Shown in pieces: positions 18,001-21,000 of a stretch of 64,000 nucleotides of DNA. A program made the position numbers. Source of the stretch: an uncultured Methanosarcinaceae archaeon (GTDB lineage Archaea > Halobacteriota > Methanosarcinia > Methanosarcinales > Methanosarcinaceae). Location of the stretch: positions 68,841-132,840 of the forward strand of contig CAWHXP010000010.1 in the NCBI GenBank assembly GCA_963833425.1, in the 5' to 3' direction. Each line of letters begins with the position of its first letter. The first letter of the stretch is position 1.

Positions 18001-21000
18001 TTATCATTTAAATCAATAGCTACCTAATTTTATTGATTTCTTACTATAAACACTTAAGTCTTAAATTGAATAAAGGAGTGCCAAAATGTTTCAGTTGATA
18101 GTCCCAAGTTTAGATAAAATTTTGGCTTTACTTGCATTAACTTATGCAGTAATTTGGCGTTGTAGAAACTTTCTCTAAAGTAACATTCTTAGGTTAAATT
18201 TGAATCTAGAAACTTGCCATTGTAAATTTAATTAAAAATGTTCAGTTTGTTTCAACCGTTCCAACCTGCTGTAATTTCTAATGATCAATTATAGTAATGA
18301 GACTAAATAGTTCAGAAGACACTACAAGAAAGATATTTGTATTCACATTGGACATGGAGCCATTTTGGATATCACATTAAACAATTCTATTATCTTCAAT
18401 CATTTTTATAATTGCAACTTAATCTATAAAAAATAGCTTTCTGAACTAAAGAGATTCAAAACTACTTTAGTATATATGTAAAGATTTCTAAAAGGTTATT
18501 ATTGAATTAAAAAATTCTGTCTACTATATTGAAGCTATGTTTGAATCTACTACACCCAAAAATTAAATTGAAAAAATCAAGAGAAACTTCATCCACCTAT
18601 CAAGTTTGACTTCCTTTGATACCAGATACTAATTTATATCATTCCACTAAAGAATCACACATTTTCGTTTGATGGTACAGTTGTGAGTTTTGAGAATTTT
18701 ACCCCTTTTAGGGCCATTATAGATTCGTCAACCTCTTTAATTCTTTCACCATCTCCATCCAAAACAATTACTTCAAAACAGTTTTCATGATCGATGTGTA
18801 TATGCACGGATGACTTTATTAGGTGAGAGTATTGATGCTGGATATCTGCAAGGGCGTTTGAGAGACCTCTTTTATTGTGGTCATAAACAACAGCAATGGT
18901 TCCGATACGATGGCCTTTAATGCCACCCATCCACTCGTAATAGGAAATATAACTCCTGATGGCATCTCTTATGCCTTCTGAACGGGAAGAATAGCCTCTT
19001 TTTTTGGTAATCTCATCAAATTTACTCAAAAGGTTGTCAGGAAGAGAAACCCCTATCCTCATAAGTTCTGTTTCCATCGTATCACCAAATTATTTGGATT
19101 TATCCATTTAATAATACTTTATTATAACATAAGTATTACTATATATGTTTTATCCACTTAATAACCACATAAAATAATTAGTTATGATTCCATACTAGAA
19201 ATCAGTACTTCATAAGCCCCGAAAGATATTTTTAATCTGTTAAAGTTTTGAAAACTTCAATATTTAGCAGTTATTTATAGTTCAAAACGTCTTCAATACC
19301 ATCTCTCAGTTTTTTTGTTTCGCCTTTTGGATGGAGAGCGTAGAACGTCTTGATGCATGAAAAACCTAAAAATTTTGGTATTTTACAGATGATATGCCAG
19401 AAAAGACTTTGGAAATATTGAAATTTATCGATGGCCATGTTTTTTTAACTAGTTATCCGAAATATTTACAATCCTAAGCCAACAAAGGTTTGTTAATATG
19501 CATTCACTAAAGCAGGATTTATTCAAAATTATATAATCATAAAAAGAAGTCGATTTAGTCCTAAAAAGAAAGAAATTAAGGGTTTTAAATTTATTTTTAC
19601 GACCTATTGCCGGTAGACCTTTTTGGGGTAGTTTTGCATAAGGATCGCAAAATAATTTAGACCATTATTTATATTCCATATATTTTTTCCAGTTGTTTAT
19701 ATCATTTTCTGGAACTAGGGTTCGACAATTGGATTAAAGTGTCCTGACTCTGTACCAGCAGGTACCTCACCCAAGTAGGGGAAACTGGTTGCAGGAGAAG
19801 GACAAGATACAACCCAGGATCCTGCGCCATTATAAACATACTGACAAGGACCAGACCAGTTCCATCCCCAGCCAAAGCCGTCACCCCAGCTTCCTCCAAA
19901 GCCCCAAGCTCCACCACGGTACCAACCTGCACGTGCACTAACTGACATACCTGTCAATGATACTAAAAACAGAGCTGCTAAATAAATAGACAGTACCTTT
20001 TTCATTTTACTGGATGATTGTTTCAATATTTTATTACGCTCCTTTTATATTGTTTAACTTAACACTGAATACTGATAACATTTATAGATATATAAATATA
20101 TATGTATAATTACTAATTTATTGTTTATAAGCCCTGGAAGATAATGATATTCCGTAAGGTAACAAATATTGCCCTATTTCTTTTTTGAGTCGTCAGTAGT
20201 ACTTATTATTTAATCCTTCGTTAAAATTGATTCAAAGCATTTCTTATAATCAATCTTTTACGCCTATTTATTTTGCTAATTTATTAGATTTGGTAATAAA
20301 ATTTGGATATTATCAAAATATTTAGAATATAACCAAAAATTTATCTATAATAGATATAGCATATAATTCTTAATATTTATTAGAATAAATATAAAAGGTG
20401 AAACAAATGTTAAAACAAACATCTAGTAGAATGAAAAAGGTACTGTCTATTTCTTTAGCAGTTCTTTTTGTAATATCGGTGACATCAGTGGCAGCTAGTG
20501 CACACTATGGTGGCTGGGGCGGCTATGGCTGGGGTCCCGGATGGGGCTATGGTACTGGTTGTAGGTGGGTGGGTGGTGATAATTGGCTTTGCCCTGGATT
20601 CAATTTTACATCGGGAATGCCATACACTATTCAAAATTCAACACCTGCAGCTCCAGCTCCTGCGGCTCCGGATCTAGGTCCAGATGCAGGACTAGCTATA
20701 TTTCCAAAAAAAGCATCCACATAGATAATTTCTTCAAGTATGTGATTAAAACAATGTAAATGATGTTACCCTTAGTCATTGTATAGGATTTTGATAAGCA
20801 AGGCATAAAACATTTTAAAATTGACAATAGTTTGAGCTTATTACATTTTTAATCATTCCTGGATAACATCACAAGCTTATCAACAAATAACGTAATTTGT
20901 GGAGTTCAAACATTGTCATAAAATATTAATATATTAAAATTTTGCATTTGATTTAGATAGGTTTCTTTGATGGTTTAGCTGAAGTTCTGTTATATCTGAT

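Follow-up and report, generated by a model that had tools for sequence, protein, structure and literature searches.

Two divergent genes, ORF A and ORF B, lie between nikR and a cbiMNQO operon in the stretch of Methanosarcinaceae DNA analysed here (64,000 nucleotides, hereafter the window). They are probably members of a fast-evolving multigene family of small exported proteins that is almost restricted to one genus. The family is defined by a shared leader at the N-terminus of its members; it is confirmed as typical of the genus, as expanded in the focal lineage and as carrying otherwise unrelated cargo.

ORF A (positions 19715-20026, minus strand) encodes 103 amino acids from a TTG start. 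Its leader occupies about 19934-20029 on the same strand, where the canonical first codon is replaced by ATA (20027-20029) and a second in-frame ATG lies eight codons in; an SD-like GGAGCG can be read from the sequence at 20037-20043 (minus strand). The ortholog in genome G152 (locus L087) is intact and has the identical ATA-TTG start. ORF A is thus maintained, being intact in two species with its unusual start kept. Its cargo runs from a Gly/Trp-rich stretch through a Cys-x13-Cys-Pro hairpin to a Pro-Tyr motif. ORF B (20407-20724, plus strand) is preceded by an SD-like AGGTGA (20396-20401, plus strand), 5 nt ahead of its ATG. The 32 codons of its leader (20407-20502, plus strand) specify an 8-residue extension, Met-Lys-Lys, a hydrophobic core and Ala-Ser-Ala, and the cargo with its stop codon (20503-20724, plus strand) contains two N-x-S/T sequons. 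In this cargo a Gly/Trp/Tyr-rich stretch comes first and a Cys-x9-Cys-Pro hairpin second; a Pro-Tyr-Thr-Ile-Gln strand follows, then a linker of Pro and Ala, and finally a short hydrophobic motif that is conserved. Eleven full-length relatives of ORF B were found among 5.8 billion proteins, with Cys52, Cys62 and Pro63 invariant. Neither ORF has a Pfam family or a C-terminal anchor of the PGF-CTERM type. Searching the protein Atlas gave no usable match, and the AlphaFold2 (AF2) model of ORF B, a helix at residues 3-33 followed by strands at 53-56, 59-65 and 72-77, is of low confidence (pLDDT 54).

Two further members are present in the window. One, of 63 aa (35685-35876, plus strand), has a cargo that is first His/Gly-rich and then Cys/Gly-rich. 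The other, ORF B' (37507-37836, minus strand), is a close paralog of ORF B with a 97% identical cargo.

The size of the family was estimated with a leader HMM of 36 positions, built from 23 seeds and applied to the 65,810 six-frame ORFs of at least 30 aa in the focal genome. Matches numbered 27 at E<=1e-12, 45 at 1e-8, 67 at 1e-5 and 82 at 1e-3, while reversed-ORF decoys gave none at E<=1. These figures agree with the survey's finding of at least 50 such ORFs, or 86 at a looser cut, and they are lower bounds because the assembly, in 21 contigs, is only about 80% complete. Among the 40 best members, none reaches the cut-off of an NCBIfam family and 39 reach that of no Pfam family, the exception being a cupredoxin; the reported absence of known families is upheld. 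The members are strongly clustered: 9 of the 45 found at E<=1e-8 are on contig C10, against 1.5 expected, and 29 of the 67 lie no more than 5 kb from a further member, where random places give 10 +/- 4. The 45 reduce to 33 loci. Neighbours recurring over these loci are CbiM, a beta-propeller protein and a TPR protein, each at 4, and a sensor and an IS240-type transposase, each at 3; the labels of CbiM and the transposase were confirmed by searches, while those of the other three were read from N-terminal sequences.

Between genomes, a match to the leader profile is found in 56 of 58 congeneric genomes. The leader had been described as confined to the genus, which holds apart from weak matches, with E values of 1e-5 to 5e-4 only, in 7 of 118 genomes from 15 other genera. 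The expansion in this lineage that had been reported is borne out by at least 44 matches in each of G000, G129, G152, G153 and G157. In a representative library of 1.84 billion proteins at least 738 clusters carry the leader; among the best 150 of these, the match begins at residue 1 in almost all and lengths are mostly 40-150 aa. Members in M. acetivorans, among them AAM05387.1 and AAM05391.1, carry no annotation beyond predicted or hypothetical protein. Full-text searches on Methanosarcina signal peptides, small secreted proteins and His- or Gly-rich proteins found no description of the family, and the available portions of PMC4158269, PMC10617489 and PMC11456600 make no mention of it.

The leader has the layout of a Sec-type signal peptide, as the survey had proposed. 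Its 32 residues comprise the 8-residue N-terminal extension, Met-Lys-Lys, an uninterrupted hydrophobic core of about 17-18 residues and Ala-x-Ala. Lys10 and Lys11 are kept in at least 90% of the 26 best leaders, providing the positive n-region. In 179 proteins, the residue at -1 is Ala in 149 and that at -3 is Ala, Val, Thr or Ser in 171. Conservation ends exactly at the cleavage site; ahead of the start codon, the information content across 32 paralogs climbs over the positions from about -20 to -1. A lipobox is lacking: +1 is Arg in ORF A and His in ORF B, and Cys occupies this position in only 11 of the 179 proteins. Calling the leader 'nearly invariant' was an overstatement, since mean column identity in the 26 best is 71% and its dN/dS is about 0.38. 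The conserved ribosome site likewise stands only in relaxed form: the exact GGAGTGAAATAA is found upstream of only 4 of 45 members, with an SD-like GGAG or GGTG in 38. That the leader is the general signal peptide of the organism can be rejected. The signal peptide of the S-layer protein does not match the HMM, and among ORFs called signal-peptide-like by a crude rule the leader is mainly on small ones, being found on 31 of 107 of 80-150 aa but only 3 of 65 of at least 300 aa.

Export of the leader proteins is well supported by these sequence features, and the precursor is probably cut after Ala-x-Ala. It is possible, though doubtful, that the leader instead stays in place as an N-terminal signal-anchor, such that the members would be small type-II membrane proteins showing variable tails on the cell surface. 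A core of 17-18 residues is long for a signal peptide, and in the AF2 model of ORF B the whole of residues 3-33 forms a single continuous helix. In the available passages of PMC4350412, cleavage is documented for the S-layer protein of M. mazei, the only one to have lost its signal peptide among 28 N-termini recovered from that species (31 from Methanosarcina); the same passages state that signal-peptide predictors do poorly in Methanosarcina. With removal so seldom detected there, the leader could persist as a membrane anchor. Against this, an uncleaved anchor would have no need of the strict -3/-1 rule described above, nor of conservation that stops right at the Ala-x-Ala site.

The mature parts are short, with a median length of 56 residues, and contain little Leu, Ile, Glu or Phe. 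A two- to three-fold enrichment is seen for His (2.95-fold), Cys (2.25-fold), Trp and Gly, and His falls within the first six mature residues in 60 of the 179 proteins. The previous description of the cargo as variable and of low complexity holds in that it is unrelated and mostly low-complexity between members, but it fails to account for the Cys-hairpin core common to ORF A and ORF B, which is evident in an alignment of 15 sequences with invariant Cys and Pro. The mature part of the ORF A/B type would begin with a disordered Gly/aromatic stretch and continue with a small beta-hairpin bridged by Cys and then a Pro-Tyr strand, ending in a tail of Pro, Ala, Ser and Thr that carries N-glycosylation sequons. 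Such a make-up suggests a protein of the envelope or matrix more than an enzyme.

The genomic context of the pair in the window has suggested a connection with metals. To the left is nikR (18655-19077, minus strand), in which a domain search identified RHH and NikR_C. To the right is the cbiM-cbiN-cbiQ-cbiO operon (21519-24942, minus strand), with cbiO split into two ORFs, along with a conserved gene of 248 aa without Pfam family that follows cbiMNQ on contig C7 too. Two nicotianamine-synthase-like genes and a 73-aa His/Glu-rich ORF are also present in this region. Elsewhere in the window, ORF B' is divergent to a NikM-like gene of the CbiM family (38714-39291, plus strand), which is frameshifted just after its start; the intact form, found in L089, is of 203 aa. 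A NikN-like gene with a PDGLE domain (PF13190, 37.8 bits against a cut-off of 27) completes this module at 39449-39772 (plus strand). Between ORF B' and the NikM-like gene lies the core of a conserved element of about 48 bp (38341-38368, minus strand). A NikR-type operator would be a 7-N13/14-7 inverted repeat; the conserved 7-N14-7 element found upstream of NikM-like genes, including the neighbour of ORF B', has a right half that is no clean inverted copy. A scan with delta-proteobacterial and enterobacterial NikR half-sites gave no convincing site at the focal locus, and a listing of palindromes in the AT-rich intergenic regions is uninformative.

The survey reported that members adjoin metal-homeostasis genes more often than chance. 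For the family as a whole this association is not supported. The random-place test overstates its significance because the members are so strongly clustered, the four of the 33 loci that adjoin CbiM are two pairs of duplicated loci, and five complete genomes of other species contain 14 cbiM and 18 nikR matches, none of which has any of the 51 members within 5 kb, the nearest being 8.3 kb away. The association does persist for the ORF A/B subfamily within one clade, in which 11 of the 17 loci examined adjoin a NikM-like and PDGLE module, nikR or cbiMNQO. Eight of these ORF B-type loci are within about 1 kb of NikM-like and PDGLE genes, one is at 5.7 kb, and two are near nikR or cbiMNQO; across G000, G152, G153 and G129 the pairing with the module occurs in three different arrangements. 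Even here the linkage is largely inherited, as the modules of the clade are paralogous duplicates.

One reading of this context is that ORF A/B-type proteins and the His- or Cys-rich members capture metal outside the cytoplasm, or act as accessory proteins, feeding nickel or cobalt to a co-regulated NikM-PDGLE or CbiMNQO transporter with a function like that of NikK or NikL. Extra periplasmic Nik components have been proposed, according to the available parts of PMC545781 and PMC2667541, and the position of the pair in the window, the associated nicotianamine-synthase-like genes and His/Glu-rich ORF, the modules beside ORF B-type genes, and the enrichment and early placement of His would all fit. 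Several observations nevertheless make this unlikely. In addition to the null result in other species and the inherited nature of the linkage, of the four NikM-like loci in G000 two lack an ORF B-type gene over a distance of 3 kb, and both modules of that genome have one broken partner, the NikM-like gene being frameshifted in one and the ORF B-type gene containing a TGA in the other. His is scarce in mature ORF A and ORF B, with one or two residues at the most, and both Cys sit in the hairpin. At the focal locus the 48-bp element was not found near ORF A/B, nikR or cbiM when two mismatches were allowed. Finally, the high dN/dS and frequent stops of the subfamily are ill-suited to a needed uptake component.

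Leaders are more alike at the codon level than codon usage predicts, with a same-codon share of 0.66 against 0.32 expected. As the family-wide dS of the leader is only 0.68, this synonymous conservation is attributed to recent expansion (dS about 0.7) rather than to RNA structure. For comparison, dS is 0.28-0.60 between nikR paralogs, 0.36-0.52 between NikM-like paralogs and 0.12 for nikR between G000 and G152. A conserved structure such as an SD/anti-SD hairpin is rejected by a single-sequence fold z of -1.3 and by RNAalifold, which gave no pairs in 30 paralogs. Targeting of the initiation regions by sRNA41, an Rfam match at 958-1074 of the window, is similarly rejected: the median duplex energy is -15.6 kcal/mol for 45 members, weaker than the -21.7 of 400 background starts.

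Indels, frameshifts, nonsense mutations and recombination in patches all alter the cargo. The dN/dS of the ORF B core has a median of about 0.6 and ranges from 0 to 1.4, as estimated on partitions of 30-50 codons each, with nikR at 0.08. In-frame stops occur in 9 of 22 ORF B-type matches, 7 of 45 members are no longer than 50 aa, and there are frameshifted and start-less copies, the ATG at leader position 1 being missing in 9 of 45 members including ORF A. Two copies are mosaic: 100 nt of upstream sequence and the first 50 nt of the leader are 100% identical between them, as are about 99% of positions in the last 190 nt or so, with a central patch of about 110 nt that cannot be aligned. A diversity-generating retroelement was considered for the patch and set aside, as the differences there involve every type of base and indels too. 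These mosaics could in part be population variants resolved by the assembler. In one metatranscriptome, contigs belonging to relatives are 85-95% like the ORF A cargo (depth 451) and the ORF B cargo (depth 56-103), and the leader is heavily represented; several intergenic bins have a depth of 0, a figure to be read with the caution that such gaps may only reflect divergence and that carry-over of DNA is possible.

Diversification under conflict is known from conotoxins, from the skin peptides of amphibians and from Gly/His-rich peptides of plants, and the pattern of a conserved leader on hypervariable mature parts could similarly indicate secreted antimicrobial or competition peptides, akin to archaeocins. 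The expansion in one lineage, the islands containing IS240-type transposase and integrase genes, the dN/dS near 1 in some pairs, the mosaic patches, and a Gly/His-, Gly/Tyr/Trp- or Cys-rich composition reminiscent of known Gly/His-rich antimicrobial peptides would be in keeping with such weapons. Yet the antimicrobial-like character previously suggested for the cargo is not favoured by its charge, the median net charge being 0 with only 23% of proteins at +3 or more, and ORF A and ORF B neutral to acidic as counted from their translations. Moreover, the neighbours that recur over the 33 loci include no gene for immunity, export or modification, as would be expected beside a RiPP or bacteriocin precursor, and the leader is of plain Sec type, not of the double-glycine or RiPP kind. 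An antimicrobial function is accordingly improbable.

That most members are non-functional remnants of the repeated duplication of a leader-containing fragment, with cargo free of constraint, would account for the in-frame stops, missing start codons, very short and frameshifted copies and dN/dS of up to 1.4, but is very unlikely given the leader dN/dS of about 0.38 with its cleavage-site pattern kept, the invariant Cys and Pro of the ORF A/B core across 15 sequences, the intactness of ORF A in two species, the persistence of the family in 56 of 58 congeneric genomes and the presence of relatives in an RNA library. Part of the family may still be non-functional, since many members are truncated or broken.

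The favoured explanation, a fast-evolving family of small exported proteins, would work as follows. Inheritance from a common ancestor would have given the members a short 5' untranslated region that carries a strong ribosome-binding site, together with the 32-residue extended Sec signal peptide, which, judging from its primary structure, would take the nascent chain to the Sec translocon; the mature part would then be freed by the probable cut after Ala-x-Ala. Their diversity is likely to have arisen when genes duplicated recently within one clade and the copies then diverged by slippage at repeats, frameshifts, nonsense mutations and recombination in patches between paralogs. The leader is kept under moderate purifying selection, and many copies are decaying. 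In the focal clade the ORF A/B subfamily travels with genes for nickel and cobalt uptake (NikM-PDGLE, nikR and cbiMNQO), and it could conceivably act at the cell surface to supply one of these metals. A more elaborate proposal is that the leader and ribosome site form a reusable export cassette with which one clade of Methanosarcina rapidly creates and reshuffles small surface peptides, by patchwise recombination concentrated at the end of the leader and in the low-complexity region, and that the ORF A/B type was recruited as a new extracytoplasmic partner of NikM-PDGLE nickel uptake in this clade, where the genes for nikM, nikR and nicotianamine synthase have multiplied too; this is speculative, and the odds are well against it.

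Archaeal export and surface biology is a poorly charted field, in which a leader found on at least 738 clusters offers a sequence handle for the small secretome of environmentally important methanogens. The family is also a natural test set for the specificity of archaeal signal peptidase, and its leader a candidate export tag for Methanosarcina genetics. It constitutes a clear archaeal case of a conserved leader with fast-changing cargo, in which the mechanisms of change (slippage, frameshift, nonsense mutation and mosaic patches) are visible. Should proteins of the ORF A/B type prove to help supply nickel or cobalt, they would be relevant to the trace-metal limitation of methanogenesis.

Several known systems bear some likeness to this family. 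The NikK, NikL and NikN components of NikM(N)QO systems, as treated in the available parts of PMC545781 and PMC2667541, are small extracytoplasmic or membrane proteins beside NikM, much as ORF B-type genes adjoin modules in 8 of 17 loci. By contrast, ORF A and ORF B have no sequence relationship with them, the module already owns a NikN-like PDGLE protein, and the linkage is limited to one clade. The resemblance to the plant glycine-rich cell-wall proteins (PF07172, GRP), in which Gly/Tyr/His-rich cargo of low complexity likewise comes after a signal peptide, is compositional only; of the 40 best members, 2 match this model weakly, at 17.9 and 19.3 bits against a cut-off of 30. Another conserved archaeal signal peptide of surface proteins is that of the haloarchaeal surface glycoproteins (TIGR04207, halo_sig_pep), to which 2 of the 40 members have weak matches (17.0 and 19.8 bits, below the cut-off of 24.6) and the other 38 none. 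These matches start at the second Met of the leader, leaving the N-terminal extension outside.

The precursors of conotoxins and amphibian skin peptides combine a signal region conserved even at synonymous sites with hypervariable mature peptides. The leader family is also a multigene expansion with birth and death, but its synonymous conservation comes from recent expansion and its cargo is not cationic. Conserved signal-peptide families on unrelated cargo are also represented by ESPR in autotransporters and by YSIRK-G/S and KxYKxGKxW in Gram-positive surface proteins. No Pfam or NCBIfam model of these types matches any of the 40 members at E<=0.01. The likeness is in design: a Sec signal bearing a family-specific n-region or extension, here 8 residues before an ordinary 24-residue signal. 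The leader family differs in being archaeal, in being almost confined to one genus, and in heading low-complexity cargo, mostly of 40-150 aa, rather than large adhesins.

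The two small genes at positions 19715-20724 of the window, ORF A and ORF B, each begin with a 32-residue Sec-type leader. A leader HMM (36 positions, 23 seeds) searched against the 65,810 six-frame ORFs of the genome under study, G000, matched 27 ORFs at E <= 1e-12, 45 at 1e-8, 67 at 1e-5 and 82 at 1e-3, while no reversed-ORF decoy matched at E <= 1. The survey's finding of a common leader is therefore real. The 26 best leaders form an ungapped alignment with a mean column identity of 71%, and consist of an eight-residue extension followed by Met-Lys-Lys, approximately 17 hydrophobic residues and Ala-x-Ala. 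Among 179 leader proteins, comprising the G000 members and library representatives, Ala occupies position -1 in 149, and Ala, Val, Thr or Ser occupies position -3 in 171. Conservation of the leader DNA sets in approximately 20 nt before the start codon and stops sharply at codon 32. An SD-like site is found upstream of 38 of the 45 members, whereas the exact 12-mer ribosome site previously described as conserved precedes only four. The leader is not covered by any Pfam or NCBIfam model, and its closest matches, which fall below threshold, are to TIGR04207 (haloarchaeal surface-glycoprotein signal peptide) and to the N-terminus of DUF7096. By a crude signal-peptide rule of our own, the leader heads 31 of 107 signal-peptide-like ORFs of 80-150 aa, versus only 3 of 65 of at least 300 aa. 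The organism does not use this leader as its general signal peptide: the G000 S-layer protein has a different, 24-residue signal with no match to the leader HMM. Cleavage of a signal of this S-layer kind is documented for M. mazei (PMC4350412).

The proposed confinement of the leader to one genus holds to the extent that 56 of the 58 other congeneric genomes contain profile matches, but it is not absolute, as weak matches (E 1e-5 to 5e-4) are present in 7 of 118 genomes from 15 other genera of the family. Five genomes including G000 have at least 44 matches, compared with 2-16 in the complete genomes of model species. A variant form of the leader prevails in five complete genomes, one being M. 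acetivorans C2A; the cargo following it is Trp/Lys/Glu-rich, Gly/His- or Cys/Gly-rich, or made of Gly-Tyr-Lys-Asp or Trp-Asp-Gly repeats, and the members there include two large surface proteins of the NHL or PKD type. Leader-bearing clusters in a library of 1.84 billion representative proteins number 738 at E <= 1e-3, of which 121 reach E <= 1e-10; in nearly all of the best 150 library matches the leader starts at residue 1, and their length is mostly 40-150 aa. No prior description of this family was found in the full-text literature searched for it.

ORF A (19715-20026, minus strand) and ORF B (20407-20724, plus strand) are divergently transcribed, with an AT-rich spacer of 380 nt from start to start (20027-20406). 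ORF B has an ATG start with an AGGTGA ribosome site five bases upstream. The canonical first codon of ORF A is ATA, so that translation can begin at the adjacent TTG or at an ATG eight codons downstream; the ORF A ortholog in the related genome G152 (locus L087) is intact and likewise has the ATA-TTG arrangement. To the left of the pair is nikR, and to the right are a cbiM-cbiN-cbiQ-cbiO operon and a conserved 248-aa gene without a Pfam family, which is found after cbiMNQ on a second contig too. Also part of this nickel/cobalt neighbourhood are an additional, partial cbiQO set and a NikM-like gene with a PDGLE (NikN-like) gene after it. Two tandem nicotianamine-synthase-like genes (12366-14079, plus strand) and a 73-aa His/Glu-rich ORF without the leader (17517-17738, plus strand) in the same region are suggestive of a metallophore and of nickel buffering in the cytoplasm. 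Three transporter genes look broken, which could represent real decay or assembly errors: cbiO (22275-22890, minus strand) is split into two overlapping ORFs, cbiQ (15077-15846, minus strand) into two ORFs, and the NikM-like gene (38714-39291, plus strand) is frameshifted beyond codon seven. Between the two member pairs of the window lie an IS240-type transposase (25298-26002, plus strand), a Prim-Pol fragment (30069-30413, minus strand) and a phage-type integrase (33666-34883, minus strand). The setting of the family is a mobile, low-GC region (contig GC 0.344), and IS240-type transposases are near members at three loci. An Rfam match to archaeal sRNA41 (RF02905; 958-1074, minus strand; 73.2 bits, gathering score 45) is close to a NikM-like locus just beyond the window edge, and exhibits no preferential complementarity to the start regions of the leader family.

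The mature parts have a median length of 56 residues; relative to the genome background, His (2.95x), Trp (2.83x), Cys (2.25x) and Gly (2.1x) are over-represented in them and Leu, Ile, Glu and Phe under-represented. Not all of this cargo is structureless: ORF A and ORF B have a conserved core. Aligning the 11 full-length relatives of ORF B found among 5.8 billion proteins with ORF A and other paralogs reveals invariant Cys52, Cys62 and Pro63, in a core running from a Cys-x9-13-Cys-Pro hairpin through a Pro-Tyr strand and a Pro/Ala linker to a short hydrophobic motif, often followed by a Ser/Thr tail with N-x-S/T sequons. A low-confidence AF2 model (pLDDT 54) folds the leader into a helix and places three short strands across the core. 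This type of hairpin is present in 25 of the 179 family proteins; other recurring modules include a further hairpin that is Trp-rich and Cys-bridged, a Pro-Val-Val-Val-Lys pro-region joined to His-rich tails, repeats of Lys-Ala-Ala-Lys-Gly and a class of 11 proteins among the 179 in which the +1 residue is Cys.

Synonymous sites in the leader are also conserved. Where any two of 29 non-redundant leaders agree in an amino acid, they also share its codon in 66% of cases, compared with 32% predicted from codon usage, and several rare codons are fixed. RNA structure can be dismissed as the cause, since RNAalifold found no conserved pairs in 30 paralogs and the single-sequence fold is unremarkable. 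Instead, the scale of divergence explains this conservation: the family-wide leader dS of 0.68 (dN 0.26) is comparable to that between nikR paralogs in G000 (0.28-0.60) and between NikM-like paralogs (0.36-0.52), the nikR ortholog pair of G000 and G152 having a dS of 0.12. This implies that the expansion of the family in this clade is recent, too short for unrelated cargo to arise by point substitution, and therefore that the cargo changes via other processes.

The core of ORF B-type genes shows relaxed or diversifying evolution, with a median dN/dS of approximately 0.6 (range 0-1.4) in ten genes versus 0.08 for nikR. In-frame stops interrupt 9 of 22 ORF B-type matches across the genus, in-frame family-like sequence continues past the stop in two short G000 members, and a start-less, frameshifted copy of ORF A is present on its own contig. 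Indels distinguish the Gly/Trp regions of close paralogs, and we infer that some His-rich cargos correspond, in another frame, to Thr/Met/Ala-rich strings. One pair of G000 genes (C10:106347-106676 and C3:443688-444023) is mosaic: identity is 100% over 100 nt upstream and the first 50 nt of the leader and approximately 99% over the last 190 nt or so, while the central stretch of about 110 nt, spanning the leader end and low-complexity region, is unalignable and contains an in-frame TGA in the C3 copy. This patch points to recombination between paralogs; it could also consist of population variants placed by the assembler (21 contigs, approximately 80% complete).

The survey's finding that members lie next to metal-homeostasis genes more often than chance does not extend across the family, because members are clustered, CbiM neighbours occur only at duplicated loci, and the 51 members in five complete genomes of other species all lie more than 5 kb from each of the 14 cbiM and 18 nikR matches there. 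Contig C10 carries 9 of the 45 members against 1.5 expected, and another member lies within 5 kb for 29 of 67, compared with 10 +/- 4 at random places. The 45 members form 33 loci, of which CbiM neighbours four, these being two pairs of duplicated loci; as a neighbour it ties with a beta-propeller protein and a TPR protein, the latter two labels being read from printed sequences.

The surviving metal link is specific to the ORF A/B subfamily, which is limited to 6 of the 59 congeneric genomes, these being among those with the largest leader-family expansions. Seventeen ORF B-type loci were examined (five in G000 and 12 of the 17 matches in other genomes): eight are within approximately 1 kb of a module of NikM-like and PDGLE genes, in three arrangements, one is 5.7 kb from such a module, two are near nikR or cbiMNQO, and six have none of these nearby. 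A nickel-related role for the subfamily is possible, though rather unlikely. The linkage is partly inherited, because many modules are paralogous copies; two of the four NikM-like loci in G000 have no ORF B-type gene, and both G000 modules have one broken partner. At locus L089 (G152:C5), positions 7971-12009, a NikM-PDGLE pair is flanked by three leader-family genes with three different cargo types. G000 has eight cbiM-family loci (of two types, approximately 32% identical) and three nikR copies, against 2-4 cbiM loci in each of the five complete genomes from other species; amplified Ni/Co uptake genes and an amplified leader family are seen in the same clade.

In four genomes, a conserved element of approximately 48 bp precedes NikM-like or cbiQO genes. 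It occurs in the window at 192-219, 5819-5846, 16573-16600 and 38341-38368, elsewhere in G000 at C3:443165, C12:103045 and C12:109100, and in relatives at loci L089-L093, L095 and L098. The 28 bp core includes a TATA-like box and two TATTAC-containing heptamers 14 nt apart. The element may be a promoter or operator of a nickel regulon, but it does not form a clean NikR-type inverted repeat.

One public metatranscriptome, available as contigs, contains sequences 85-95% like the stretch at 19715-20724. Summed depth is heavy in the leader bins. Depth is 451 for a contig covering the ORF A cargo, 56-103 for contigs covering the ORF B cargo and 0 in several intergenic bins. This places relatives in an RNA library but falls short of proving that ORF A and ORF B themselves are transcribed.

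The best-supported conclusion is that this is probably a multigene family of small proteins, almost entirely of one genus, with Sec export predicted from sequence features. The common extended signal peptide is inherited and maintained by moderate purifying selection, and the mature parts turn over quickly; cleavage, location and function are presumptive. The make-up of ORF A and ORF B, which are aromatic- and Gly-rich with a hairpin, a Pro/Ala/Ser/Thr tail and sequons, is a better match to envelope- or matrix-associated proteins than to cationic antimicrobial peptides. The antimicrobial-like cargo once envisaged sits poorly with the lack of net positive charge in these two proteins and a median net charge of 0 across the mature parts. 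The family falls within the sequence criteria of none of the curated Pfam and NCBIfam models tested. Its closest known counterparts are conserved classes of signal peptide found on bacterial surface proteins, the haloarchaeal surface-glycoprotein signal, and the venom and skin-secretion gene families of animals, in which a conserved signal precedes a hypervariable mature peptide.
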